Positions 390 through 20,454 of a DNA stretch of 27,074 nucleotides are shown here, piece by piece. The notes under the pieces are model-generated. The model worked only from the letters and a program-made list of their open reading frames with translations, made no database searches and had not been told where the DNA came from. A program made the position numbers and the translations under genes. Each line of letters starts with the position of its first letter. The stretch's first letter is position 1. This DNA comes from Candidatus Limnocylindria bacterium (GTDB lineage: Bacteria; Chloroflexota; Limnocylindria; QHBO01), in assembly GCA_036258775.1 (NCBI GenBank), contig DATADA010000183.1, positions 1 to 27,074 on the forward strand, given 5' to 3'.

Positions 390-913
390 CGGCCGCTCAC
401 GCCGAGCGCGGCGAGCTGCTCGTCGACGACCTGCTGGCTGAGCGGGCCGAACCACTTGAAGCGGACGATCCCCGAGGCGTCGACGAAGTAGGTCTCCGGT
501 GGGCCGGTGACGCCGAGGTCGAGCGCGATCCCGCCGTCCGGATCGAGGAGCGTCGGCCAGCCCCCGTCCCCGTAGCGCGCCAGCCAGCGGCGCGCGGCAT
601 CGGCCTCGTCCTGGTACAGGAGCCCCACGACGCTCAGCTCGTCGCCGTGCTCCGCCTCGAGCCCGAGCAGCACGGGATGCTCGTCGACACACGGCCCGCA
701 CCAGCTGGCCCACACGTTGACGATCGCGGGCCGGCCGCGCAGGGCGTCGCTGGCGAGGCGTTCGCCATCCAGCGTCGCCGCCTCGAAGGGGGGCAGGGGC
801 CGTCCGATGAGCGGCGACGGCACCTCGCGCGCGTCCCGGCTGAACCCGGTCAGGAGCAGCCAGCCGACGGGGAGCACGAACACGGGCAGCACCAGCCACC
901 TGAGCCTGCTCAT
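386..913 (-). CDS. ccmG: Thiol:disulfide interchange protein CcmG/DsbE (TlpA-like thioredoxin)
   Basis: Real start is the ATG at 913 (MSRLRWLVLP), which overlaps the ccmF stop. N-terminal membrane anchor, then VNVWASWCGPC, GVTGPPETY. 175 aa. Confidence 0.93.
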   Translation of the reverse strand: MSRLRWLVLPVFVLPVGWLLLTGFSRDAREVPSPLIGRPLPPFEAATLDGERLASDALRGRPAIVNVWASWCGPCVDEHPVLLGLEAEHGDELSVVGLLYQDEADAARRWLARYGDGGWPTLLDPDGGIALDLGVTGPPETYFVDASGIVRFKWFGPLSQQVVDEQLAALGVSGR

Positions 914-2952
914 CGGGCGCTCTCGGCGGTCGCGGCCGCCACGGGGCCCTCGGCGTCGGAGACCGACAGCGAGGACGGGCGCCGCGCCCGCTCGCGCGCC
1001 GGCTGCGGACGGCGGTCGGGCCACGCGGCGAAGATCGCACCGGCGACGGCGACACCGCCGCCGGCCCAGATCCAGGCGACGAGCGGGTTGACGAACACCG
1101 CGAACGACGCCACACCCGTCGCCGGGTCGTGGCCGAGCAGCGTCACGTACAGGTCCTCGCCGAGTCCGGACCGGACGGCGGGCGTCAGGATCGGCGTGGC
1201 CGAGCTCGGATACTCCCGCACGGCGGCGACCAGCGAGCCCCGCTGCGGGCCGGTGTAGTCGAGGTGCGCCCGCGTCTCGGCCACCCGGGCGTCGTCCGCC
1301 AGCGGCCCGCGGTCGACGCCCCGATACGTGAGCGTGTAGTCGCCGATCCGGATCGTCTCGCCCGGCCGCACCGTCCGCTCGGTGCTGTGCGCCGCGGTCG
1401 AGCTGATCGCCACGGCGACCGCCATGACGAGCACGCCGAGATGAACGACGTAGCCGCCGTAGCGACGTCGACTTCGCGCGACGAGGCGCCATGCCGCCGT
1501 CGGCACGGCCTCTCCGCGGCCGCCTGCCCTGGCCCGGGCGCCACGCACCCACTCGTCGGCGATCACCGCCGCGACGAAGCCGGCGAGCGCGAGCGTCGCG
1601 ATCGCCGCTGGATCACGCGCGCCGAACAGGAGCGCCGCCGTGCCGACGACGGCGGCGACGGCCAGCGGGAGCGCGAAGCGCCGCCTGACCGTCTCCCACG
1701 ACGCCGCACCCCACGGCAGCGCGGGGCCGACGCCCATCACGAACAGGAGCGCCAGGGCGATCGGCACGGTGACGGCGTTGAACCATGGCGCGCCGACGCT
1801 GACCCGCACGCCGCTGATCGCCTCGGCGAGGAGCGGGTAGAGGGTCCCGAACAGGACGGCGAAGGTCAGCGCAACGAAGAGCACGTTGTTGAGCAGGAAC
1901 GCGCTCTCGCGGCTCACCGCCGCGGCCGGACGGTCGGCGACGGCGAGATCCGGCAGCCGCCAGATGATGAGCGCCACCGAGGCGGTGAGGGCGAGCAGCA
2001 CGCCCCCCAGGAACCACGGGCCGATGGCCGACTGCGTGAACGAGTGGACGCTGGCCACGACCCCCGAGCGGGTCAAGAACGTCCCCAGGATGGTGAACAC
2101 GAACGTCGCGCTCACCAGCGTGACGGTCCACGTCCGCAGCCCGCCGCGGCGCTCGGCGACCATCGATGAGTGCAGGAAGGCGGTCGCCGTCAGCCACGGC
2201 AGGAGCGCGGCGTTCTCGACCGGGTCCCACGCCCAGTACCCGCCCCAGCCGAGCACCTCGTAGCTCCACCAGGCACCGGCCACGATGCCGGCGGTCAGGA
2301 AGATCCACGCCGCCAGCGTCCATCGCCGGGTCGTCCGCAGCCACTCGGCGCCGAGCCGGCGGGTCACGAGCGCCGCCACGGCGAACCCGAACGGGATGGC
2401 GAGGCCGGTGTAGCCGAGGTACAGCAGCGGCGGGTGGAGCCCCATGAACGGGTGGTTCTGCAGCAGCGCGTTCGGGCCGGGGCCCTCGCTCGGGACCGGC
2501 GTGATGCGGACGAACGGGTCCCCGGGCCACACCATGACCGCCAGGAAGAAGACCAGGCCACCGGCCAGCGCCGCGCCGACCCACGGCATCAGCGCGACGT
2601 GGCGGTGCCGGTATCGGTACAGGACGAGCGCCGCCCAGCCGCTGGCCAGCAGGGTCCAGAACAGGATCGAGCCCTCGAGCGCCGCCCACAGGCTGATGAC
2701 GCTGAAGAACGGCGGCGTGGTGGTCGCGTTGTTGCGCGCGACGTACTCCACGCTGAAGTCGTGGCCGAGCAACGCCGCGACCATGGCCCCGCACGCGAGC
2801 AGGGCCGCGGCGAAGGTGAGGTAGATCGCGGTCCGTGCGCTGGCGAGCACGCCGGTGTCGCGGCGCAGGCCGGCCGCCACGAACGCGACGAGGGCGTAGA
2901 CGGTCAGCGCCAGCCCGACCACGACCGACGCGTGTCCGACGACCGCGGTCAC
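910..2952 (-). CDS. ccmF: Heme lyase CcmF/NrfE family subunit
   Basis: 680 aa polytopic membrane protein with NHPFMGLHPP, the WWD-type motif WSYEVLGWGGYWAWDPVENAA, and TRSGVVASVHSF. GTG start overlaps the ccmE stop. Confidence 0.97.
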   Translation of the reverse strand: MTAVVGHASVVVGLALTVYALVAFVAAGLRRDTGVLASARTAIYLTFAAALLACGAMVAALLGHDFSVEYVARNNATTTPPFFSVISLWAALEGSILFWTLLASGWAALVLYRYRHRHVALMPWVGAALAGGLVFFLAVMVWPGDPFVRITPVPSEGPGPNALLQNHPFMGLHPPLLYLGYTGLAIPFGFAVAALVTRRLGAEWLRTTRRWTLAAWIFLTAGIVAGAWWSYEVLGWGGYWAWDPVENAALLPWLTATAFLHSSMVAERRGGLRTWTVTLVSATFVFTILGTFLTRSGVVASVHSFTQSAIGPWFLGGVLLALTASVALIIWRLPDLAVADRPAAAVSRESAFLLNNVLFVALTFAVLFGTLYPLLAEAISGVRVSVGAPWFNAVTVPIALALLFVMGVGPALPWGAASWETVRRRFALPLAVAAVVGTAALLFGARDPAAIATLALAGFVAAVIADEWVRGARARAGGRGEAVPTAAWRLVARSRRRYGGYVVHLGVLVMAVAVAISSTAAHSTERTVRPGETIRIGDYTLTYRGVDRGPLADDARVAETRAHLDYTGPQRGSLVAAVREYPSSATPILTPAVRSGLGEDLYVTLLGHDPATGVASFAVFVNPLVAWIWAGGGVAVAGAIFAAWPDRRPQPARERARRPSSLSVSDAEGPVAAATAESAR

Positions 2953-3428
2953 GGGCGGCCCGGTTCCTCCGCCGGCACGAAGACGCTGCCGCCGGGCGTC
3001 TCGCCGGGCGCGGGCGCCTCATAGTTCTCGTCGTGCTTGACGATCACGCGCGTCGCCCGGAAGACCCCGTCGACACCCAGCGTGCCCTCCACCACGGCGC
3101 CGGTCCCCTCCCGGAACGAGCTGGTGGGGGCGCTGTCCGCCCGGACGGCGACGTGGGTCTGGCCATCGGTCAGGACGAAGCGCAGGTCGGTGGGTGGCCC
3201 GCTGACGCTGCCCGGCTCGACAAGCCCTCCCACCCGCACCGTCTCGCCGACCGCCCGCTCACCGCGGGCGACCAGCTCGCTGGGGGTGAGGTAGTAGACC
3301 AGCGCACTGCCGATGCTGCCGAACGCCAGGAGCACGATCGCGCCCAGCGCGACCGCCGCGCCCAGGACGATCCCCCACCGGCGGCGGCGGCGCGGCAGCG
3401 CCGGTGGCGCCGGGGCGCGGACGGTCAT
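2949..3428 (-). CDS. ccmE: Heme chaperone CcmE
   Basis: ATG at 3428 (MTVRAPAPP) overlaps the ccmD stop. One TM segment, YYLTPSE, VRVGGLV, FREGTGAVVEG and the heme-binding HxxxY motif KHDENY. 159 aa. Confidence 0.95.
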   Translation of the reverse strand: MTVRAPAPPALPRRRRRWGIVLGAAVALGAIVLLAFGSIGSALVYYLTPSELVARGERAVGETVRVGGLVEPGSVSGPPTDLRFVLTDGQTHVAVRADSAPTSSFREGTGAVVEGTLGVDGVFRATRVIVKHDENYEAPAPGETPGGSVFVPAEEPGRP

Positions 3429-3550
3429 CGCTCGTCGTCCCGGGCTCGCTCCCGCGCGCGGCGCAGGCGCCTGCCGAGAAGCAGGGCGTAGGCCGCCAGT
3501 CCACCCAGGATGACGCCGTAGGCCGCGATCACGAAGCCGGCGTCGCTCAT
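3425..3550 (-). CDS. ccmD: Heme exporter protein D (CcmD)
   Basis: 41 aa, MSDAGFVIAAYGVILGGLAAYALLLGRRLRRARERARDDER: one TM plus a charged tail. Sits between ccmC and ccmE with ATGA overlaps on both sides. Confidence 0.85.
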   Translation of the reverse strand: MSDAGFVIAAYGVILGGLAAYALLLGRRLRRARERARDDER

Positions 3551-4260
3551 CGGGCCAGCGCCTCCCCGCGGACGGCCGCGACGCGCTCGCGGCGCACCTC
3601 CTCCTCGCGCCGCTGCTCGAGCCGCGCAAGCTCGTAGCGCCGGACCATGAGGTACGCCCAGGCCAGCGTGAAGGCGACGAGCATGCCGACCAGGGCGGCG
3701 ACGAACTGCCCGGGTGCGGGCGGATCGAAGACGCGGTCGGGGGCGAGGAAGGTCGGCGGCTGGTGCAGGCCACGCCACCAGATGACGCTGAAGTGGACGA
3801 TCGGGATGTCGACGGCGGCGACCAGGCCGACCACCGCCGCGCGGGTGGCGCGGCGCAGCGGGTCGTCGGTCAGGCGTCGGACCAGCAGGTAGCCGACGTA
3901 GAGCGCCAGCAGCAGGGCCGTGGTCGTCAGGCGCGGGTCCTCCCACTGCCAGAAGACGCCCCACACCGGCCGGCCCCACATCATCCCGCCCCAGATGGCG
4001 AAGGCCGTGAACATGACGCCGATCTCGGCGCCGGCGTGCGCGGCCGCGTCGAAGCGAAGGTCGCGGCGCACGAGCCACAGCAGCCCGCCGACGGCCGTCA
4101 CCGCGAAGGACAGGTAGCCGAGCCACGCCGAGGCAACGTGCGGGTACATGATCCGCTGCGCGTCGCCCTGGTTGGCGTCCGGCGGCACCACGAAGAGGCC
4201 GAACCCGGTCGCCGCCGCGACGGCGGCCACCGCCGCCCAGCCGAGGATGCGCGTCGCCAT
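3547..4260 (-). CDS. ccmC: Heme exporter protein C (CcmC)
   Basis: ATG at 4260 (MATRILGW). QRIMYPHVASAW, tryptophan-rich WGRPVWGVFWQWEDPRLTT, VHFSVIWWRGLHQP. 237 aa. Confidence 0.96.
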   Translation of the reverse strand: MATRILGWAAVAAVAAATGFGLFVVPPDANQGDAQRIMYPHVASAWLGYLSFAVTAVGGLLWLVRRDLRFDAAAHAGAEIGVMFTAFAIWGGMMWGRPVWGVFWQWEDPRLTTTALLLALYVGYLLVRRLTDDPLRRATRAAVVGLVAAVDIPIVHFSVIWWRGLHQPPTFLAPDRVFDPPAPGQFVAALVGMLVAFTLAWAYLMVRRYELARLEQRREEEVRRERVAAVRGEALAR

Positions 4261-4267
4261 CGGCCGC

Positions 4268-4957
4268 TCAGTCCTCCAGGACGAAGCCGTAGGCGGCCGC
4301 ACCGGCGACCAGCATGACGACGTCGAAGGCCGCGAGCAGCTGCAGCCACGCGACGAGCTCGCCGAACGGGTCGCCGGTCAGCGCGGCGGCGGTTGCCTTC
4401 ACCGCCGCGAGCAGGAGCGGCGCCGTGACCGGCAGCAGGAGCAGCGGCAGCAGCACCTCGCGGGCCCGCATGCGGACGGTGAGGCCGGCATAGAAGGTGC
4501 CGGCCGCGCCGAAGCCGACCGCGCCGAGCACCACGGTGACCGCCAGCGGCAGCCATCCGGCGGCCGGATCGAGCCCGTACAGGACCGCGACCGCAACGGT
4601 CAGGAGCGCGCCGAGCAGCAGCATCGCCGCCGCCGCCGCCAGCGCCTTGCCGGCGTACAGCGCGCGGCGCGAGACCGGATAGAGGGCGAGCTGCTCGAGC
4701 GAGCCGTCCTCCGCCTCGAGCTCGTGGAGCCGCGCGACCGCCAGCAGACCGGCGAAGACGAGCGCCAACCACAGCAGCCCGGGCGCCGCCTCGGCCAGGC
4801 GCCGCGCATCGGGCCCCAGGGCGAAGCCGAACAGGAGCAGGACGAGAGCCGCGAAGAAGACGGTGGAGACCGCGGCGTGCCGGCCTCGCAGCTCGGCGAG
4901 CGCGTCCTTACGGGCGACGGCCAGCGCCACGCCCAGCTCCCGGCGCACCGAGCTCAA
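4268..4957 (-). CDS. ccmB: Heme exporter protein B (CcmB)
   Basis: 229 aa hydrophobic protein: ARKDALAELR, APGLLWLAL, REVLLPLLLLPVTAPLLLAAV. TTG start overlaps the ccmA stop (TTGA). Confidence 0.93.
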   Translation of the reverse strand: MSSVRRELGVALAVARKDALAELRGRHAAVSTVFFAALVLLLFGFALGPDARRLAEAAPGLLWLALVFAGLLAVARLHELEAEDGSLEQLALYPVSRRALYAGKALAAAAAMLLLGALLTVAVAVLYGLDPAAGWLPLAVTVVLGAVGFGAAGTFYAGLTVRMRAREVLLPLLLLPVTAPLLLAAVKATAAALTGDPFGELVAWLQLLAAFDVVMLVAGAAAYGFVLED

Positions 4958-5757
4958 CGCGAGGCGCCCGCGGTGAGCACCCCGTCACCCACGGCGTGCG
5001 GCTGGTCGGCGGGCCGCGCCGCCGGCGCCCCGTCGAGAAGGCGGACGGCGCCGCCCCGGGCCTCGACGGCCACGCCGCCCTCCAGCCGGAGCGTGCCGTC
5101 GGCCTGTGCTGCGATCCGGTCGGCGGCGTGCGAGGCGACGATGACCGCGACGCCCGCGTCCCGCCAGGCGACGAGGAGCCGGTCGACGAAGCCCATCGCG
5201 TCCGCGTCGAGGGCAGCGTACGGCTCGTCGAGCAGCACCAAACTCGGAGAGCCGAGCAGCAGTCGCGCCAGCCCCAGCCGACGCCGCATGCCGGCCGAGT
5301 AGCCTCGGACCCGGCGGTCCGCCACTCCCTCGAGGTCCACCGCTGCCAGCGCGGCCGCCACCCTCTCCCTCGACTCGACGCCGCCGAGGCCGAGCAGGGT
5401 CGCGGAGAAGACGAGGTTCTCGCGCGCGGTCAGGTCGCCGTAGAGCGCGGTGGCGTGCGACAGGTAGGCGACCCGTTCGCGCACCTCGATCGGGTTGACG
5501 GCCGGATCGAGGCCGTCGATCCGCACGCTCCCCCAGCTCGGGCGGATGGCCGTGGCCAGGATCCGCAGCAGCGTGGTCTTGCCGGCTCCGTTCGGCCCGA
5601 GCAGGCCGACCACCCTCCCGGCGTCCATGCCGAACGAAACGCCGGCGAGGGCCGGCGTCTCCCCGAAGAGGCGGGCGACGTCGCGGGTCACGACGGCGGC
5701 CGGCGGCGAGTCGAAGAGCCCGCGGGAGCGCGGGGAAACGTAGATCGTCTGCGGCAT
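4954..5757 (-). CDS. ccmA: Heme ABC exporter ATP-binding protein CcmA
   Basis: Start taken at ATG 5757 (MPQTIYV), downstream of a clear promoter. Walker A GPNGAGKTT, signature YSAGMRRR, Walker B LLDEP. First gene of the ccm operon. Confidence 0.92.
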   Translation of the reverse strand: MPQTIYVSPRSRGLFDSPPAAVVTRDVARLFGETPALAGVSFGMDAGRVVGLLGPNGAGKTTLLRILATAIRPSWGSVRIDGLDPAVNPIEVRERVAYLSHATALYGDLTARENLVFSATLLGLGGVESRERVAAALAAVDLEGVADRRVRGYSAGMRRRLGLARLLLGSPSLVLLDEPYAALDADAMGFVDRLLVAWRDAGVAVIVASHAADRIAAQADGTLRLEGGVAVEARGGAVRLLDGAPAARPADQPHAVGDGVLTAGASR

Positions 5758-5830: not shown

Positions 5831-5853
5831 GCGGCGTAATCGGCGGCGTAATC
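5831..5853 (+). repeat. 11-bp direct repeat GCGGCGTAATC x2 with 12-bp period; candidate regulator site
   Basis: Exact copies at 5831-5841 and 5843-5853, in the divergent ccmA/cupredoxin intergenic region. Confidence 0.7.
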
Positions 5854-5886: not shown

Positions 5887-6327
5887 ATGACGATCACGAA
5901 CAGCGGCCTGCCCGCCCTCGGGCTGGCCGTCCTGCTCCTGCTCCTGCTGGCGGCGTGCGGCGGCGGGACGGCCACCGCACCGCCCACCGAGTCGGCCGGC
6001 GAGGACCACGGCGCGCATGAGACCGGCGCCCCGGCCGAGACCGGCGCCGGCGGCGGGGAGTCGATGGAGGTGGCACTCGCCGACTTCGCCTTCGCGCCCA
6101 CGGAGCTCACGGTTCCCGCCGGCACGACGGTGACCTTCACCAACGAGGACTCGGCGCTCCACTCGGTGAGCGAGGGGAGCGACGGGCAGGTGGCAGATGA
6201 CGCGGCGTTCGACGAGGACGTCGAGGGCGGGGCGAGCGTCGAGATCACCTTCGACGAGTCGGGCACCGTCCAGGTCACCTGCAAGTACCACCCGTCGATG
6301 AACATGACGGTGACCGTCGAGGGCTGA
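5887..6327 (+). CDS. Cupredoxin (plastocyanin/azurin-family type 1 copper) lipoprotein
   Basis: GAGGAG RBS then ATG at 5887. Lipobox LLLAAC, FAFAPTELTVPAGTTVTFTNED, His in ALHSV, C-terminal CKYHPSM supplying the Cys/His/Met ligands. 146 aa. Confidence 0.92.
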   Translation: MTITNSGLPALGLAVLLLLLLAACGGGTATAPPTESAGEDHGAHETGAPAETGAGGGESMEVALADFAFAPTELTVPAGTTVTFTNEDSALHSVSEGSDGQVADDAAFDEDVEGGASVEITFDESGTVQVTCKYHPSMNMTVTVEG

Positions 6328-6370
6328 CCTGCGCCGCCCGGCGGCATCGGTTGCCCGGCCGGGGGGTGGA

Positions 6371-6379
6371 TGCTAGCCT
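6371..6379 (+). promoter_or_regulatory. Extended -10 element upstream of the HxlR-type gene
   Basis: TGcTAGCCT ends 10 nt before ATG 6390; no obvious RBS. Confidence 0.4.
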
Positions 6380-6389
6380 TCGGCGCCTG

Positions 6390-6767
6390 ATGGACGCCGC
6401 CCCCGCCGCCGATAACGGCGCGCAACCCCGGCGCCGCGCGGAGCGGCGCGCAGCGGCCCAGCAGGCGGAGTCGGAGGCGACGACGGCCCTCAACGTGCTC
6501 GGCCAGAAGTGGGTGCTGCGCATCGTCAGGGAGCTGGGCGGGCGCAAACGGCGGTTCTGCGAGCTCCAGGACGCACTCGGCGGCGCGAACTCCGCCACGC
6601 TCTCGCAGCGGCTGCGGCTGCTGGAGGAGGAGGGCGTGATCGCGCGCCGCATCGTGAGCAGCGTGCCGCCCTGGGTCGAGTACTCGCTCACCGACAAGGG
6701 GGTCGACCTGCGACGGGCGATCTCGGGGATCGAGAGCTGGGCAGACCGCTGGTCGAGGCGGGCATGA
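6390..6767 (+). CDS. HxlR-family winged helix-turn-helix transcriptional regulator
   Basis: LNVLGQKWVLRIVREL, RRFCELQ, TLSQRLRLLEEEGVIARR, PPWVEYSLTDKG all match the HxlR/DUF24 pattern. Confidence 0.9.
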   Translation: MDAAPAADNGAQPRRRAERRAAAQQAESEATTALNVLGQKWVLRIVRELGGRKRRFCELQDALGGANSATLSQRLRLLEEEGVIARRIVSSVPPWVEYSLTDKGVDLRRAISGIESWADRWSRRA

Positions 6768-7252
6768 GCCATCCGATCGCCGAGGAGCGTCCCACCGCGC
6801 ACGGCGACGCGCTCAACGCGGTGCGGTCGGGGATCGCCGAGGGGTTCGACCCGGTCGCGGCCGCGCAGCGCGCGGTCGACCTGCTCCACGAGCGCTTCGG
6901 GCACTACGACTGGGTCGGCATCTACTGGGTCGACGGTGGCGATCTCGTCCTCGGGCCGTGGCGGGGGCCGGAGGCGACCGAGCACACGCGGATCCCGATC
7001 GGCACCGGCATCTGCGGCGCCGCCGCGGCGAGCGGCCGGACGGAGATCGTCGACGACGTCGACGTCGACCCGCGCTACCTCGCCTGCTTCGCGAGCACGA
7101 AGAGCGAGATCGTGGTGCCGATCCTCGAGGGCGGGCGCGTGGTCGGTGAGATCGACATCGACGGCGCCGATCGCGCCGCCTTCGACGACACGGACGCCAG
7201 GTTCCTGGAGGAGGTCGCCGCCCTCCTCGCGCCGCTCCGACCCCGCGCGTGA
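6764..7252 (+). CDS. msrC: GAF-domain protein, probable free methionine-(R)-sulfoxide reductase (MsrC/YebR family)
   Basis: ATG 6764 overlaps the upstream stop. YDWVGIY, LGPWRG, IPIGTGICGAAA, RYLAC, SEIVVP, GEIDIDG. The two Cys sit in the GxCG and (H/Y)xAC motifs of fRMsr. Confidence 0.75.
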   Translation: MSHPIAEERPTAHGDALNAVRSGIAEGFDPVAAAQRAVDLLHERFGHYDWVGIYWVDGGDLVLGPWRGPEATEHTRIPIGTGICGAAAASGRTEIVDDVDVDPRYLACFASTKSEIVVPILEGGRVVGEIDIDGADRAAFDDTDARFLEEVAALLAPLRPRA

Positions 7253-7265
7253 GGTCCGGGCGGCG

Positions 7266-7288
7266 CGCCGTAACCGCCGCCGTAGCAT
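7266..7288 (+). promoter_or_regulatory. Promoter region of the ECF sigma gene: CGCCGTA x2 (12-bp period) and -10-like TAGCAT
   Basis: CGCCGTA at 7266-7272 and 7278-7284. TAGCAT at 7283-7288 lies 7 nt before ATG 7296. Confidence 0.5.
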
Positions 7289-7295
7289 CGGTCGC

Positions 7296-7871
7296 ATGGG
7301 CCGCCAGCACGATCCGAACCGGAGCGCGGCGGTCGTCACCGCCGAGGCCCGCTCCGGCGGCGCGACGTTCGAGGCGATCTACGACCGCCACGCGGTGGGG
7401 ATCTACCGCTTCATCTACGCGCGCGTCGGGAACCGGCCGGACGCGGAGGACCTGACCGCGCAGGTGTTCATGCGCGCCGTCGAGCAGCTCGACACCGCGC
7501 GCGACGCCGGACAGATCGCCGCCTGGCTCTACCGCGTCGCACAGAACGCGATCGCCGACTACTGGCGGGCGTTCTACCGCATCCCGATGGTGGCCGCCGA
7601 CGACTGGGCGCCGCGCTGGGACCCGGCCGACACCGGCAGCCAGCAGGCGCCCGCCTCGCCGGACGGCGACCACGCCACGCGGCGCGTGGAGGCGCTGCTG
7701 CGCCGCCTGCCCGACCACTATCGGCGCGTCCTCGAGCTGCGGTTCCTGCAGCGGCTGTCCGTCGCCGAGACGGCGTCGCGGATGGGCATCAGCCCGGGCA
7801 ACGCCAAGGTGCTGCAGTACCGCGCCCTGCGCAAGGCGGCGCTGCTCGCCGAGGGTGCGGCCGATGGCTGA
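7296..7871 (+). CDS. ECF-type RNA polymerase sigma-70 factor (BldN-like sequence features)
   Basis: 191 aa. Sigma2: FEAIYDRH...AEDLTAQVFMRA...AWLYRVAQNAIADYWR. Sigma4: LPDHYRRVLELRF...LSVAETASRMGISPGNAKVLQYRALRK. Confidence 0.93.
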   Translation: MGRQHDPNRSAAVVTAEARSGGATFEAIYDRHAVGIYRFIYARVGNRPDAEDLTAQVFMRAVEQLDTARDAGQIAAWLYRVAQNAIADYWRAFYRIPMVAADDWAPRWDPADTGSQQAPASPDGDHATRRVEALLRRLPDHYRRVLELRFLQRLSVAETASRMGISPGNAKVLQYRALRKAALLAEGAADG

Positions 7872-8712
7872 GCGGCACGAGCTCGACGCTGCCGAGCGGC
7901 TCGAGCGCTACCTCGATCCGCTCATCGCCGGCGGCCGGCCGGCGCCCGAGGACACTCCCGACCCGGCCGACGCGGATGTCGCGCGGCTGGCCGCCGAGCT
8001 GTCCGCCGCCACGGATCCGTCACGGGGAGAGCCGGACGATGCGTTCCTCGAGCAGCTGCGCCGCCGCATGCGCCAGGCCGACGAGGGGATCGCGGCCGTC
8101 GTTGTGCCGCCGCCGATCCGCGCCGAGGCGGCGGCCCGCCACGAGGCGACCGCCCCGCAGACGCCCGGGGCGCCGTCGCCCGCCGGGAGCAGGCGCTGGT
8201 CGATCAGCCGGCGCCAGCTGCTCCAGGCGGGGCTCGGCGCCGCGGCCGGGCTCGCCGCCGGCGCCCTCGGTGCGTCGGCGATCCGCCCGCCGGACGCCAG
8301 CGACGAGACGGGCGGCTGGGAGAGCGAAGGCGGGCTCGTCGCCGGCGAGGGCTTCTGGGCGGAGATCGCGACGGTCGAGCAGGTGCCGCCCGGCAGCGCC
8401 GTCCGCTTCGAGACCGCCGCCTTCTCCGGGTTCGTCGTGAACGACGGCGGCGAGATCCGCGCGCTCTCGAGCGTGTGCCCGCACATGGGCTGCACGCTTC
8501 ACTTCCGTCCCGACTGGCACGACCTGCGCTGTCCGTGCCACGGCGCCAGCTTCGACCTGGAGGGACGGCTGGCGAACGGACGGCGCCGCTGGCGCGAGCG
8601 CGGCGAGTACCCCGGCGATGCTCGCGCCTACCCCGTGGAGCTGCCCCCGCTGGTCCGCCCGCGAACGCGGGTGGAGGACGGCCGGGTCTACGTCTGGACC
8701 GCGCAGGCCTGA
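7864..8712 (+). CDS. Putative anti-sigma factor fused to a twin-arginine segment and a Rieske [2Fe-2S] domain
   Basis: ATG 7864 overlaps the sigma gene by 8 nt. Helical N-terminus (ERLERYLD...EPDDAFLEQLRRRM), SRRQLL at residues 115-120 followed by a Gly/Ala-rich h-region, then Rieske boxes CPHMGC and CPCHG. The Rieske call is firm; the anti-sigma call is inferred. Confidence 0.8.
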   Translation: MAERHELDAAERLERYLDPLIAGGRPAPEDTPDPADADVARLAAELSAATDPSRGEPDDAFLEQLRRRMRQADEGIAAVVVPPPIRAEAAARHEATAPQTPGAPSPAGSRRWSISRRQLLQAGLGAAAGLAAGALGASAIRPPDASDETGGWESEGGLVAGEGFWAEIATVEQVPPGSAVRFETAAFSGFVVNDGGEIRALSSVCPHMGCTLHFRPDWHDLRCPCHGASFDLEGRLANGRRRWRERGEYPGDARAYPVELPPLVRPRTRVEDGRVYVWTAQA

Positions 8713-15670: not shown

Positions 15671-16492
15671 TCAGCCTCCGTGCTCGCCCTCGAGCAGGAA
15701 GGTGATCAGCGCCTCGAGCTGGCTCTCGCTGAGGACGTCCTCGGGGTAGGACGGCATGCCGGTCGACTCGCCGCCGTTGTAGTTCCCCGACGAGTCGCGG
15801 ATCCAGTTCTCCAGGAAGAGGCGCGGGTCCTCCTCGTAGTCGGCCTCCATCTGGTCGAGCTCCGACGGCGGCACCGGCAGCTCGGTGATCAGCTCCTCGC
15901 CGATGCCCTGGATGTTCGGGAACTGGGGTGGGGCTCCCGCCAGGTCGGCGCCGTGGCAGCTGGCGCACGATGGCGAGACGGAGGTGTACACCTGCGCCCC
16001 GGCCTCGACGGTGTTCGGCACCTCCTGCGGCTCCTCCTCCTCCGCCTCCTCCGCCCAGCTCTCGACCAGCACCGTCAGCGCCTCGATCTGCTGCTCGTTC
16101 AGCGGCCCACCGACCTCGTAGCTCCAGGCCGGCATGGCGCTGTTGACGTTGCCCGACACGACCACGCCGCCGAAGCGGATGACGAGGTTCACGTAGTTCG
16201 GGTTCGCCTGCAGCTTGTCGGCGATCCGGGCCGAGTGGAGGTTCGGGGCCTGCACGGTGCCCTGCGCGGTCTCGGCCTCGCCGCCGGTTCCGTCGGCGCC
16301 GTGGCAGCGGGCGCAGCCCGCGGCGGCCGGGTTCGACGGATCGTCGGCGAAGATCTCCTCGCCGAACTCGAGGAGCTGCTCCTCCTGGGTCTCGGCGCGG
16401 GCGGTTCGCCGCGCGTCGTCGGTGATCCAGTAGAAGACGGTGAACACGCTGAGCGCCAGGGTCACCAGTACGCCGAGCGTCTTGAGCCGCAT
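15671..16492 (-). CDS. Membrane-anchored diheme c-type cytochrome
   Basis: N-terminal TM. Two CxxCH motifs (CARCH, CASCH), each followed by a candidate distal Met (SAMPAW, TGMPSY). 273 aa. Confidence 0.93.
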   Translation of the reverse strand: MRLKTLGVLVTLALSVFTVFYWITDDARRTARAETQEEQLLEFGEEIFADDPSNPAAAGCARCHGADGTGGEAETAQGTVQAPNLHSARIADKLQANPNYVNLVIRFGGVVVSGNVNSAMPAWSYEVGGPLNEQQIEALTVLVESWAEEAEEEEPQEVPNTVEAGAQVYTSVSPSCASCHGADLAGAPPQFPNIQGIGEELITELPVPPSELDQMEADYEEDPRLFLENWIRDSSGNYNGGESTGMPSYPEDVLSESQLEALITFLLEGEHGG

Positions 16493-16495
16493 CGG

Positions 16496-17113
16496 TCAGG
16501 CGGAGCAGTGCGGCATGTCGCCCGGGCCACGGGAGTCGAACGTCACCGTGCCGGGTGGAGGACCGCTGATGACCTCGCGGGTGTCGACGATGTAGGTGCC
16601 GTTCTCGACTGCCGTCGCGAAGCTGTCCATCCCGCGCGGTGCGGGTCCGTCGCGCTTCTCGCCGAGGACGGTGTACTTGCTGCCGTGGCAGAGGCACTCG
16701 AACCAGTTCGACTGGTCGCACAGCTGCGGGATCTGGCAGCCGAGGTGCGGGCAGGTCCGCCACAGCGCCAGGATCTGGTCGCCGGGGTCCTGGACCGCCT
16801 CGCCGGTTCCCTCGACGCGGGCCATGGCGGCCGGCACGTTGACGACGAACAGGTTGGCGGCCTGGTAGATGTACGGCAGCCCGTTCTGCCACTCGGGTGC
16901 GGCGGAGTTGATGTCGGCGGAGGTGCCGATGCTGATCCGCGCGCCGAGCCCCTCTCGCAGGTTCGGCCACAGGAAGGCGACCGTCCCGCCCAGGAACTCG
17001 AGCGACAGGATCCCCACGCCGACGCCGAGCATCCGGCGCATGAAGCCGCGGCGGCTGATCTCGCCTCGTGGCGGGCCGTGGACGACCCCGTAGCCGGCGC
17101 CCTGCGTGGTCAC
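16496..17113 (-). CDS. Rieske iron-sulfur subunit of a quinol:cytochrome c oxidoreductase (QcrA/PetC-like)
   Basis: Real start GTG 17113 overlaps the upstream stop. Tat motif SRRGFM plus TM; boxes CPHLGC and CLCHGSKY; GPAPRGMD. 205 aa. Confidence 0.95.
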   Translation of the reverse strand: MTTQGAGYGVVHGPPRGEISRRGFMRRMLGVGVGILSLEFLGGTVAFLWPNLREGLGARISIGTSADINSAAPEWQNGLPYIYQAANLFVVNVPAAMARVEGTGEAVQDPGDQILALWRTCPHLGCQIPQLCDQSNWFECLCHGSKYTVLGEKRDGPAPRGMDSFATAVENGTYIVDTREVISGPPPGTVTFDSRGPGDMPHCSA

Positions 17114-17727
17114 AGCGTGAAGAACAGGCCGTCCCACGGCCAGACCCAGTTCCAGCCGGGGCCGCGGAAGAACGAGCCGATGAGGGTCACCAGCAGGCCG
17201 CCGATCATGATGCACAGGAAGAAGACCCACATCATCTTGCGGTCGCGGGCGGCGCGATACGGCGAGCGGTCGATGTACGGGATGATGGCCAGGCCGACGA
17301 GGTAGAGGGTCGGGACCAGGACGCCCGCCACGGTCGGGTTGAAGTAGCTCAGGATCTCCTGCAGGCCGAGGAAGTACCACGGCGCCTTGGCCACGTGCGG
17401 CGTCACCGCGCGGTTGGCCATCTCCTCGAGCGGCGCCTGGATGAGCAGCGACGTGATCGTCAGCAAGGCGAGGATGAGCATCATCATCAGGAACTCGGCC
17501 CGCAGCAGATGCGGCCAGGTCAGGAGGGTCTCGTCCGGGCGCTTGTCGACGCGGACCATCGACTCCTGCTTGACGTAGGCGAGCAGGCGGAAGCGCTCGG
17601 TGCCCGGCACGCCCGGCGGGCCGGGCAGCTTCGGGCCGGTGCCGCGCTCGACCATCGGCACGCGCGGCGGCGCCTGCGTCGGAGCGTTCTTGTCGGCGGT
17701 GGCGTTCGGCCGGCGCTCGATCGTCAT
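17110..17727 (-). CDS. Cytochrome b subunit IV-like protein (C-terminal half of split cytochrome b; PetD/QcrC-N-like)
   Basis: TWPHLL, APLEEMAN...PHVAKAPWYFLGLQE, IPYIDR; three TM helices. 205 aa. Confidence 0.92.
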   Translation of the reverse strand: MTIERRPNATADKNAPTQAPPRVPMVERGTGPKLPGPPGVPGTERFRLLAYVKQESMVRVDKRPDETLLTWPHLLRAEFLMMMLILALLTITSLLIQAPLEEMANRAVTPHVAKAPWYFLGLQEILSYFNPTVAGVLVPTLYLVGLAIIPYIDRSPYRAARDRKMMWVFFLCIMIGGLLVTLIGSFFRGPGWNWVWPWDGLFFTL

Positions 17728-17749
17728 CGGTCTCTACAGGGTAGCGCGT

Positions 17750-18484
17750 CTAGACCGGCCCGCTGATTCCGCCGTCCTTCCTGATCCGCCAGAAGTGGAT
17801 GATCATGAAGAGGGCGGCGATCAGCGGGAAGGCGATGACGTGCATGACGTAGAAGCGCAGCAGCGTCCCCTGGTCGACCTGCACACCGCCGAGCAGGATG
17901 AAGCTCGACTCGGCTGACAGGAGCGGCGCATAGGTCGCCATCTGGGTGCCGACGGTGATCGCCCAGAAGGCGATCTGGTCCCACGGCAGCAGGTAGCCGG
18001 TGAAGCTGAGCCACAGGGTGCAGAAGAGCAGCACCACGCCGACGACCCAGTTGAACTCCCGCGGCGGCTTGTACGCCCCGTGGTAGAAGACGCGGATCAT
18101 GTGCAGGAAGACGGTCAGCACCATGAGGTGCGCCGCCCAGCGGTGCATGTTCCGCACGAACGCGCCGAAGGCGACGCTCGACTCGATGGCCTGGATGTCC
18201 TGGTAGGCGCGGCTGATCGACGGCACGTAGAAGAACATCAGGTAGATGCCGGTGACGGTCAGCGCCAGGAACAGGAAGAAGCTGATCCCGCCCAGGCAGA
18301 AGGTGTAGGTGTAGCGCACGGCGTGGCGCTTCACGCGCACCGGGTGCAGGTGCAGCCAGACATTGTTCATGACCGCCAGCGCGCGGGTGCGGCTGGTGTT
18401 CGGGTAGGGCTGGCGGATGAGGCTGCGCCAGGCCGACGACTCCTTGATGAAGCGAACGACCGGGTTCGGCTGCCCGTTGCTCAT
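17750..18484 (-). CDS. Cytochrome b6-like subunit (N-terminal half of split cytochrome b; PetB/QcrB-like)
   Basis: 244 aa. FCLGGISF, RNMHRWAAHLMV...LHMIRVF, KPPREFNW, FTGYLLPWDQ, TLLRFYVMHV...IHFWRIRKDGGISGP. The four heme b histidines are present. Confidence 0.96.
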   Translation of the reverse strand: MSNGQPNPVVRFIKESSAWRSLIRQPYPNTSRTRALAVMNNVWLHLHPVRVKRHAVRYTYTFCLGGISFFLFLALTVTGIYLMFFYVPSISRAYQDIQAIESSVAFGAFVRNMHRWAAHLMVLTVFLHMIRVFYHGAYKPPREFNWVVGVVLLFCTLWLSFTGYLLPWDQIAFWAITVGTQMATYAPLLSAESSFILLGGVQVDQGTLLRFYVMHVIAFPLIAALFMIIHFWRIRKDGGISGPV

Positions 18485-20454
18485 CGGTCGACCACCGCCC
18501 CGGCCTGCTGCCCGATCTGCCCGAGCACGTTGTCCTTGTAGCTCTCCAAGAGCACCTTCCCGTCAGGCGTGAACCGCTCGAGCTCGAGGCGGTCCATCGT
18601 GATGCAGTTCGTCGGACAGCGCTCCACGCACAGGTTGCAGCGGATGCAGCGCTCCTCGTCGATGATCATCGCGATCCCGCGCGGCCACGACTGGAACAGC
18701 TCGACCTCGGGATCGTCGCCGCCGACCTGCGCCTTGTCGACCATGTAGATCACGCCCTCGGGGCAGACGTCGGCGCAGAGCCCGCACAGGATACAGCGGG
18801 GCCCATCGATGTTGATGTTGTGGTTGCACTGCAGGCAGCGCTGGCCCTCGGCGATGGCGCTGCGCGTGTCGTAGCCGACCTCGACCAGGCTGGTGAAGTC
18901 ACGGCGCAGCTCCGGCGGCGCCATCGGGATGTGCTGGCGCTCGATGGCCTCGTAGAAGCGCGGCATGTCGTGCTCGAGGGCCTGGGTCACGACCGCGCGG
19001 TTGATGACCGGCAGCTCCTCGAGCTCGTCGCCGCGGTAACCCGCCAGCCAGCGGTCGACCGCCCGCGCGCAACGCCGGCCGAGTCCGGCCGCCTCGATGA
19101 TCGTCGCCGGGCCCGTGACGAAGTCGCCGACCGCGAAGACCCCGTCGACGTTGGTGGCGAACGTGTCCGCGTTGACGGTGATCTTGCCGCGGTTGAAGTC
19201 GAAGCGGAACGAGTTGTAGCGCGCCCCATCGCCGCGCGACGGCGTGGAGCCGTTGAGCGGCGCGGTGCGCCACGACGAGACCGACCCACCCTCGAGCACG
19301 GCGCGGGTGTCGGTGACGCCGACGTGCCGGTTCAGCTTCGCGCCGTACTCGCCCAGCACGTTGTTGTCGGGTGACTGGCTCGTGCAGGGGATGACCATGT
19401 CGCACGGGATCGTGAACTCGCTGCCGGGGATCGGCTCGGCGCTGCGACGGCCTGACGCGTCCGGCGGGCCCAGACGGGTCCGCACGAAGCGCATGGCGGT
19501 GACCCGGCCGTTCTCGTCGGCGATCACCTCCTCCGGCGAGGCGAAGTACTCGAAGCGGACCCCCTCGAAGCGGGTCTCGTGCTGCTCCTCCTCGTCGACC
19601 ACCATCTCGTCGGGACCGCGGCGGTAGACGACCGTGCTCGTCTTGGCGCCGAGCCGCAGGGCCGTGCGCGACGAGTCCATGGCGGTGTAGCCGCCGCCGA
19701 CGATGACGACGTGCTCGCCGACCCACTGCGGCTCGCCGAGGTTGGCGCGCTTCAGGAAGTCGACGCCGTAGATCACGCCGTCGAGCTCCTCGCCCGGCAC
19801 GTTCATGGCGACCGGGTACATGCAGCCGGTGGCGACGACCACGGCGTCGTGCCGCTCGCGCAGCTGGTCGATGGTGACGTCGCGCCCGATCTCGGTGTTG
19901 TAGTGGAACTCGACCCCGTGCTTGGCGACCCAGTTGACGTCGAGCTCGATCACGTCACGCGGCAGCCGGAAGGCGGGGACGCCGATGAGCGTCGTCCCAC
20001 CGCCCGACGGCAGCGCCTCGTAGACGTGCACCTCGTGGCCGTAACCGGCGAGGTCCTTCGCGGCGGAGAGCCCCGCCGGGCCCGCGCCGATGACGGCCAC
20101 GCTGCGCCCGGTCGGCGGGTTGACCACGATGTGGTCCGGCATGTTGTTGGCGTAGTGCCAGTCGACCAGGAAGCGCTTCATGGCGCGGATGGCGAGCGGC
20201 TTGTCGATGTCCGCGCGGCGGCAGGCCTTTTCGCAGGGCGCGCTGCAGACGTACCCGCAGATCGCCGCCACCGGGTTCGGGTCGCGGGCGAGGATGTAGC
20301 CCTCCTCGAACCGCCCCTCGCCGGCCAGCATCAGGTAGCCGCGGCAGTTGGTGTTGACCGGGCAGCCCTCCTGGCACTCGATGTTGCACTGGAGCCAGTC
20401 GACACCGACCTCGGCCGTCTGGAACCGGAGGGGGATGGCGTTCTCGGAGCTCAC
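18481..20454 (-). CDS. FAD-dependent NAD(P)H oxidoreductase with Fe-S clusters (GltD/SudA/NfnB superfamily) and a C-terminal 2x[4Fe-4S] ferredoxin domain
   Basis: 657 aa. N-terminal CNIECQEGCP and CGYVCSAPCEKAC; FAD fold VIGAGPAG; NAD(P) fold IVGGGYTAMD...VYRR; GDFVTGP; RCLQC; then CILCGLCADVCP and CIRCNLCVERCP. Its stop overlaps the cyt b ATG (ATGA). Confidence 0.92.
   Translation of the reverse strand: MSSENAIPLRFQTAEVGVDWLQCNIECQEGCPVNTNCRGYLMLAGEGRFEEGYILARDPNPVAAICGYVCSAPCEKACRRADIDKPLAIRAMKRFLVDWHYANNMPDHIVVNPPTGRSVAVIGAGPAGLSAAKDLAGYGHEVHVYEALPSGGGTTLIGVPAFRLPRDVIELDVNWVAKHGVEFHYNTEIGRDVTIDQLRERHDAVVVATGCMYPVAMNVPGEELDGVIYGVDFLKRANLGEPQWVGEHVVIVGGGYTAMDSSRTALRLGAKTSTVVYRRGPDEMVVDEEEQHETRFEGVRFEYFASPEEVIADENGRVTAMRFVRTRLGPPDASGRRSAEPIPGSEFTIPCDMVIPCTSQSPDNNVLGEYGAKLNRHVGVTDTRAVLEGGSVSSWRTAPLNGSTPSRGDGARYNSFRFDFNRGKITVNADTFATNVDGVFAVGDFVTGPATIIEAAGLGRRCARAVDRWLAGYRGDELEELPVINRAVVTQALEHDMPRFYEAIERQHIPMAPPELRRDFTSLVEVGYDTRSAIAEGQRCLQCNHNINIDGPRCILCGLCADVCPEGVIYMVDKAQVGGDDPEVELFQSWPRGIAMIIDEERCIRCNLCVERCPTNCITMDRLELERFTPDGKVLLESYKDNVLGQIGQQAGAVVDR

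Follow-up and report, generated by a model that had tools for sequence, protein, structure and literature searches.

A sigma factor gene and a Rieske protein gene overlap in a Limnocylindria contig

The window analysed here is a stretch of 27,074 nucleotides (contig DATADA010000183.1, assembly GCA_036258775.1) from a Candidatus Limnocylindria bacterium; it has a G+C content of about 73-75%, and its closest relatives belong to the class Candidatus Limnocylindria of the Chloroflexota and were assembled from metagenomes. At positions 7296 to 8712 it encodes a sigma factor of the extracytoplasmic function (ECF) type and, in an overlapping gene, a predicted single-pass membrane protein ending in a Rieske [2Fe-2S] domain, hereafter called the partner. 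Pairs of ECF sigma and anti-sigma factors are a main route by which bacteria sense outside conditions, and their known sensor domains deal with envelope damage, metals, lysozyme or receptor signalling. The pair described here is conserved across nine families of the Chloroflexota and is most likely an undescribed sigma/anti-sigma switch controlling exported copper proteins. A sequence-only reading of the window had singled it out; the coordinates, gene lengths and 8-nt overlap it gave were all correct when the open reading frames (ORFs) were checked, and the three parts it saw in the partner (a helical N-terminus, SRRQLL with a hydrophobic segment, and an intact Rieske domain) are all real according to Pfam, AlphaFold2 and the alignments. 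The features of the pair are as follows.

7296..7871, + strand: ECF sigma factor, BldN-like, 191 aa (Pfam regions r2 and r4_2)
7864..8712, + strand: anti-sigma candidate, 282 aa; starts with an ATG placed 8 nt within the sigma gene (ATGGCTGA)
7873..8100, + strand: predicted cytoplasmic three-helix region, helices at residues 4-21, 34-48 and 59-79 (AlphaFold2 and conservation)
8209..8280, + strand: twin-arginine motif (R116, R117) and hydrophobic helix 116-139, candidate uncleaved signal anchor of the twin-arginine translocation (Tat) pathway
8341..8709, + strand: predicted extracytoplasmic Rieske [2Fe-2S] domain (PF00355), box I at 8476-8493 and box II at 8530-8541

The product of the first gene contains sigma-70 regions 2 and 4 only (Pfam Sigma70_r2, E = 5e-12; Sigma70_r4_2, E = 1.4e-12) and scores 76.9 bits against TIGR02937, above the cut-off of 42.9, as expected of an ECF (group 4) sigma-70 factor. 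The ATG at 7296 is the only in-frame start ahead of the conserved region. The likeness to Streptomyces BldN seen by the sequence-only reading was borne out: the best match in the PDB is 6dxo_A, the sigma-BldN chain of the complex with RsbN (E = 5e-23), and the best NCBIfam family is TIGR02952, the BldN family, with 110 bits, which is under the curated cut-off of 206. Judged by these scores, the sigma is BldN-like, yet it falls outside the BldN family (TIGR02952/ECF121).

Full-length homologs of the partner, with 260-296 aa, number more than 850. Since their matches span 97-100% of the query, the N-terminal extension belongs to the protein family. None of these homologs is named as an anti-sigma factor, and their database labels include those of cytochrome b6f or bc1 subunits. 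In the AlphaFold2 model, built with a 29-sequence alignment, the three N-terminal helices are followed by a poorly ordered linker rich in proline and alanine. The motif S-R-R-Q-L-L comes next, and the predicted membrane helix begins at its two arginines; R116 and R117 are invariant in the alignments, and in diverse homologs an invariant [ST]RR is followed by about 22 hydrophobic residues. The predicted anchor is probably uncleaved, since distant homologs do not keep the A-S-A that follows the hydrophobic stretch. The Rieske domain (PF00355, E = 1.6e-13, residues 165-239) is modelled as a beta-rich fold with pLDDT above 90. Its boxes, CPHMGC and CPCHGA, include both disulfide cysteines of the bc1/b6f-type (high-potential) proteins, and ligands and disulfide cysteines are kept in 29/29 diverse homologs. 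Foldseek matched the domain to 8hn2_A, the soluble part of the bc-type Rieske protein from Chlorobaculum (E = 1e-8), and further to arsenite oxidase AioB, kuste4569 and PetC3.

The sigma gene is tied to the N-terminal region of the partner

We examined the association of the two genes at increasing phylogenetic distances. Among close relatives, represented by contigs from one genome per species, a sigma ortholog lies directly upstream of the partner in 12/12 loci. For a wider survey, 401 Chloroflexota genomes were sampled, of which 107 contained matches to the partner, and the 30 best loci were inspected. Of these, 28 had enough sequence on the upstream side, and in all 28 a sigma ortholog with 40-73% identity is found directly upstream on the same strand. 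These loci belong to nine families (f1, which is the family of the window, and f8, f9, f17, f27, f28, f40, f45 and f48), one of them in the Ktedonobacterales. The distance between the sigma stop and the partner start is -8 or -4 nt in most loci. The pairing is retained where the identity of the partner drops to about 30% and that of the sigma to 40-50%, and these distant partners still have 69-145 residues before [ST]RR, the hydrophobic stretch, all Rieske ligands and the disulfide cysteines.

The sequence-only reading had proposed a genome survey for ECF genes followed by N-extended Rieske proteins. When a profile of short-headed members was used for such a search, it returned 80 Rieske loci. 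A sigma gene is upstream in 18/18 loci matching over the N-terminal region of the partner, some of them in assemblies labelled Streptosporangiaceae, Bacillota and Proteobacteria (by database label alone), whereas 0/62 loci matching in the Rieske domain only have a sigma homolog within 1.5 kb. The sigma gene is thus tied to the N-terminal domain (the head) and not to Rieske proteins in general, and the counts in the three sets (12/12, 28/28 and 18/18, against 0/62 controls) place the pairing far beyond chance. The partner has the anti-sigma topology that had been suggested for it, with an N-terminal domain that is kept, together with the sigma gene, across the nine Chloroflexota families. Flanking genes are kept within family f1 and none is conserved outside it; therefore, the conserved unit is the two-gene pair.

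The distribution of the module is patchy. In the search of the 401 genomes it was found in 10/16 other genomes of family f1 and in 0/29 genomes from the three other families of the same class, and it is common in several distant Chloroflexota families (e.g., 11/11 in f28 and 10/12 in f17).

The predicted layout of the head resembles that of an RsbN-type anti-sigma domain

The characterised regulator of sigma-BldN is RsbN, a class III anti-sigma factor of Streptomyces venezuelae. Its cytoplasmic part has 117 residues, arranged as three helices with flexible linkers between them, and touches sigma-BldN at residues 11-18, 43-50 and 63-77; a membrane helix follows at 118-139 (PDB 6DXO; PMC6101532). 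In anti-sigma domains of this type, helix 3 sits clamped between sigma-2 and sigma-4, and the sigma is inhibited. By prediction, the partner shows the same layout: a cytoplasmic part of about 115 aa with three helices near the same positions, linkers that vary, a single membrane helix spanning about 116-139 and a C-terminal domain outside the cytoplasm, all encoded beside a BldN-type sigma gene. In both cases, the gene of the membrane protein lies directly downstream of the sigma gene. In alignments across families, P26, A43 and L65 of the head are invariant and L20, P57 and F61 nearly so, and indels are confined to the linkers, whose length varies. The invariance of hydrophobic and proline positions, together with this placement of indels, shows that the head region is under selection.

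The head bears no sign of the four-helix class I or zinc-binding (ZAS) anti-sigma domain: there is no Pfam zf-HC2 or RskA match, no HxxxCxxC and no cysteine at all in residues 1-112. A phmmer search with these residues against 1.8 billion representative sequences returned 25 clusters, all of the same family or fragments. Because this exhaustive search found only same-family clusters, no other sensor domain is fused to the head.

In related genomes, paralogous sigma genes of the BldN-like kind are followed by genes whose products have the same order of motifs as the head; some of these proteins carry DUF5667. Comparison of the head with these proteins by hhalign, which draws in part on L026 (genome G004, unpublished), gives alignments that are colinear but weak (P = 4e-4 to 6e-4, probability 28-34%). 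The proteins at the paralogous loci may represent a broader group of Chloroflexota anti-sigma factors that are RsbN-like. At three of the paralogous loci (L021, L023 and L024), the sigma gene is followed by a single-pass protein with PDPxFxxxLR ahead of the membrane helix and an outer part that matches DUF5667 below threshold (19-23 bits against a cut-off of 27).

An upstream element is shared with cupredoxin and lipoprotein genes

A short bipartite element precedes the sigma gene, and a second copy precedes a cupredoxin gene further upstream in the window.

7269..7284, + strand: element CGTAAC-N6-CGTA; its end is 11 nt ahead of the sigma ATG
5835..5850, + strand: second copy, CGTAAT-N6-CGTA, ending 36 nt before the cupredoxin ATG at 5887
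5887..6327, + strand: cupredoxin lipoprotein (Pfam Copper-bind, E = 1.7e-10), candidate regulon member with the motif upstream

The form yGTAAC-N6/7-CGTA is found upstream of the sigma ortholog in about 36/40 loci, distant families included; the element at 7269-7284 is the sole match in the window, where 0.02 are expected. We scanned the assembly of the same genome (1.56 Mb, 55% complete) with YGTAAY-N6/7-CGTA and obtained three exact matches only, all intergenic and each pointing at a gene: the sigma gene, the cupredoxin gene of the window and a second cupredoxin gene on contig C71. In four f1 relatives, the intergenic matches other than that of the sigma itself precede lipoproteins of PF03640 (Lipoprotein_15), a family on whose function we found nothing in the literature; in two of the four, another match lies ahead of a small secreted protein. 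Families f8 and f28 have the element ahead of the sigma gene and of lipoproteins that are PF03640-like by motif alone. Among the targets that the sequence-only reading had thought plausible, the cupredoxin gene shares the element with the sigma gene, whereas the ccm, iscA and bc-complex genes lack the motif.

The first half of the element is identical to the -35 hexamer of the promoters read by BldN (CGTAAC-N16-CGTTGA; PMC2375139) and by ShbA (CGTAAC-N16-CGATGA; PMC12019637), and the second half resembles the -10 core of ECF promoters. In family f1, 9-13 nt separate CGTA from the start codon, which is the only start available; therefore, a productive transcript must begin at or just before the ATG, which would place CGTA near -12 and GTAAC near -24. 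The sigma might thus read a compressed promoter, yGTAAC-N6/7-CGTA, at about -24/-12. We know of no sigma-70-family factor with this geometry. The paralogous sigma genes at L022 and L025 have the canonical GTAAC-N16-CGTT upstream, which makes the compressed element specific to this sigma group. Its weight comes from its position and its recurrence before orthologous genes, not from genome-wide enrichment.

Two other candidates were rejected. A CGATGA-like -10 that takes in the ATG after the motif was dismissed, since the distance varies between 17 and 21 nt and this ATG is the sole in-frame start, and a dyad (TGCTTC...GAGAT) upstream of the sigma genes is coding sequence of a conserved upstream GAF gene.

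Similar motifs occur elsewhere. In genome G152 (family f24), about 19 matches are listed with the spacer (T/G)CTCTCT, giving TGTAAC(T/G)CTCTCTCGTA. At the two that were compared (L085 and L090), the motif stands at the start of a repeated stretch of about 150 nt. The two copies are almost the same, and Rfam has no match for the repeat, which could represent a small RNA present in multiple copies or else a mobile element with this element in its promoter. In the genome of the window, C79:430(-), C196:578(-) and C53:1704(+) show two or three direct GTAAC/GTAAG repeats, 11-12 nt apart, ahead of an SSB-like gene (C79), ahead of an ORF (C196) and near the end of contig C53 with no ORF downstream. 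These runs seem to form a distinct periodic element, one whose sequence is akin to yGTAAC-N6/7-CGTA.

A candidate redox switch and its alternatives

These observations suggest a model in which the sigma is co-produced with a single-pass membrane protein as a two-gene ECF module. We infer that the cytoplasmic three-helix head binds the sigma and probably keeps it inactive, in the manner of RsbN and sigma-BldN. The Rieske domain would fold and be loaded with its [2Fe-2S] cluster in the cytoplasm, and would then cross the membrane via Tat by means of the twin-arginine anchor, which lies internally and would stay uncleaved. The trigger would be an alteration of the exported cluster, be it in its redox state, by loss or damage, or through failed maturation or export, and a conformational change or proteolysis would release the sigma. 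The freed sigma would then turn on a few genes for exported proteins: its own operon, cupredoxins and PF03640 lipoproteins. The signal might be a shift in redox state of the cupredoxin or quinol pool, damage to the cluster by copper or oxidants, or failed maturation under iron limitation.

That the partner regulates the sigma is, in our judgement, rather probable. Rather unlikely, in our view, is the more specific reading that the exported Rieske cluster is the true signal receiver, relaying through one membrane helix to a class III-like head while the sigma possibly acts on a compressed promoter. Under that reading, a periplasmic cupredoxin or the quinol pool would set the redox state of the cluster, or else copper, oxidants or the supply of iron would act on its integrity, with failed Tat proofreading among the possible causes.

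Several results weigh against the proposed switch. Of the RsbN-type N-terminus suggested by the sequence-only reading, the layout of helices and membrane segment stood, and the sequence relation did not: when the head profile was compared with all PDB sequences at E <= 10, RsbN (6dxo chain B) was not listed. The profile found no anti-sigma domain or any other match in Pfam and the PDB, nor a paralog among the six-frame ORFs of its own genome. An AlphaFold2 model of a pseudo-fusion (the sigma, one X and the partner, with a block alignment) reached a pTM of 0.44, and confidence in the helices did not clearly rise. Superposition of the sigma portion of this model on RsbN-bound BldN is poor (6dxo_A; TMt 0.43, root-mean-square deviation 13.8 A); it is closer than that on polymerase-bound ECF sigmas (20-29 A), but it is not a match. 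Pfam TAT_signal scores the anchor at 15.2 bits, below the threshold of 22.7. As for the element, it is not enriched genome-wide over a reversed-pattern control, and its spacer of 6-7 nt, against 16-17 nt in a canonical ECF promoter, is about 10 bp too short. No -35 or -10 at canonical spacing is conserved around it in the aligned upstream regions. Because this geometry is not that of a canonical ECF promoter, the element could be the operator of another regulator instead of a promoter of the sigma.

The gene pair also admits other roles for the partner. It might be an ordinary periplasmic electron-transfer protein that is co-expressed by the sigma as a target, with a head that serves export or assembly, e.g., as a docking site for a Tat chaperone. 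Such a carrier would be expected to have the complete high-potential-type Rieske fold seen here, near the soluble domains of bc-type subunits and PetC3; it would explain why homologs are labelled as b6f or bc1 subunits and why profile searches of the PDB and Pfam reveal no anti-sigma signature, and it would sit well in a candidate regulon with other electron carriers, the cupredoxins. We nevertheless find this explanation unlikely: the linkage to the sigma follows the N-terminal region and not the Rieske domain (18/18 versus 0/62), the gene overlap is kept at 30% identity with no redox partner gene conserved nearby, the bc cluster of the window carries its own Rieske subunit, and the module contains no other anti-sigma candidate. 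Alternatively, the partner could be a positive regulator of the FecR kind, whose cytoplasmic fragment would be required for activation of the sigma rather than for its sequestration. The predicted topology and the logic of insertion through an internal twin-arginine motif are as in FecR, and the computed evidence fits inhibition and activation alike; however, Pfam finds neither a FecR nor a DUF4880 domain in the partner, and the sigma lies in the BldN-like branch, whose characterised partner, RsbN, inhibits. This makes activation of the FecR kind quite improbable.

The sequence-only reading had itself pointed out that a true start near the RR motif would leave a plain Tat-exported Rieske protein, and Tat signals are indeed normally N-terminal. 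The comparative data exclude such an artefact: in 28/28 diverse loci the reading frame runs open from the stop codon of the sigma gene, where a start codon is also present, and the 69-145 residues ahead of the RR motif are conserved at the protein level. The chance that the gene starts near the RR motif is therefore negligible.

Comparison with known regulators and Rieske proteins

If the partner is indeed an anti-sigma factor, it combines traits that are separate in characterised systems. Unlike RsbN, whose outer part is a 272-aa domain of unknown function, it carries a 140-aa Rieske [2Fe-2S] fold on the outside, and its anchor has a twin-arginine motif. The sigma differs from BldN in having no N-terminal pro-sequence, and the element in front of it (CGTAAC-N6/7-CGTA) differs in spacing from the BldN target (CGTAAC-N16-CGTTGA). 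FecR, the regulator of FecI in E. coli, is inserted by Tat via an internal RR motif (PMC12036975; Passmore 2020), as is proposed for the partner, and likewise joins a cytoplasmic N-terminal part that binds the sigma (a role we infer for the partner) to a folded periplasmic sensor. Unlike FecR, which acts positively after a cleavage cascade, the partner has no FecR domain and no TonB or outer-membrane receptor to work with, and its sigma belongs to a different ECF group.

Anti-sigma factors linked to a metal or Fe-S cofactor and to redox are known: RsmA, with a [2Fe-2S] cluster and acting on sigma-M, RshA, and the zinc-binding RsrA and ChrR (PMC3427169). The candidate described here shares this link. 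However, those proteins are cytoplasmic and hold a Cys-ligated cofactor within the sigma-binding domain (PMC3427169), whereas in the partner a Rieske centre with His/Cys ligands would sit in a domain of its own, at the outer side of the membrane. Rieske proteins that are small, membrane-anchored and not part of a bc complex are also known, namely Synechocystis PetC3 (PDB 5CXM) and kuste4569. Like PetC3, the partner has a minimal Rieske fold (TM-score 0.81, normalised by target length), carried in its case by a candidate Tat-type anchor, but PetC3 and kuste4569 have neither a cytoplasmic N-terminal domain nor a linkage to a sigma gene, and no sigma was found near the cyanobacterial Rieske loci of the 80-locus survey.

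In a full-text literature search we found no published link of a Rieske domain to an anti-sigma factor or an ECF group, in agreement with the statement of the sequence-only reading that no anti-sigma factor with a Rieske sensor is known to have been characterised; nor does the ECF re-classification paper mention Rieske proteins in its main text (supplements aside). The pair is thus a probable new variant of ECF anti-sigma signalling with a new type of sensor and a proposed mechanism. If the exported cluster is indeed the signal receiver, it would be the first extracytoplasmic iron-sulfur sensor in sigma-factor signalling. An anti-sigma factor with such an outer domain would add a redox or iron-sulfur input at the outer face of the membrane to what ECF systems can sense. 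This input would be tied to the supply of blue copper carriers in soil Chloroflexota, among which the hosts of the pair (e.g., Limnocylindria and Ktedonobacterales) are abundant and mostly uncultured. Hundreds of database entries now labelled as iron-sulfur subunits of cytochrome b6f or bc1, or as ferredoxin subunits, would then need new labels. The compressed promoter-like element is a separate puzzle.

Neighbouring genes in the window

The window contains a cytochrome bc-type cluster on the opposite strand (15671-20454, -), of which 15671-18484 is the cytochrome b part.

18481-20454, - strand: GltD-like Fe-S flavoprotein, overlapping the cytochrome b gene
17750-18484, - strand: cytochrome b
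17110-17727, - strand: subunit IV
16496 to about 17090, - strand: Rieske protein of the bc cluster
15671-16492, - strand: c-type cytochrome

Because the cytochrome b cluster of the window has a Rieske gene of its own, the partner is not a missing Rieske subunit of the bc complex. Among the surveyed loci, none has a cytochrome b gene conserved beside the sigma/partner pair.

On the other side of the pair, genes for cytochrome c maturation (ccmF, a ccmC-like gene, ccmB and ccmA; 910-5700, -) adjoin the cupredoxin gene and lack the element. Directly upstream of the sigma gene, 43 nt away and on the same strand, lie the genes of an HxlR-type regulator (6351-6767, +) and a GAF-domain protein (6764-7252, +), which overlap by 4 nt; the GAF gene is conserved in family f1 only. 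The sigma gene may also be transcribed by read-through from this HxlR/GAF operon.

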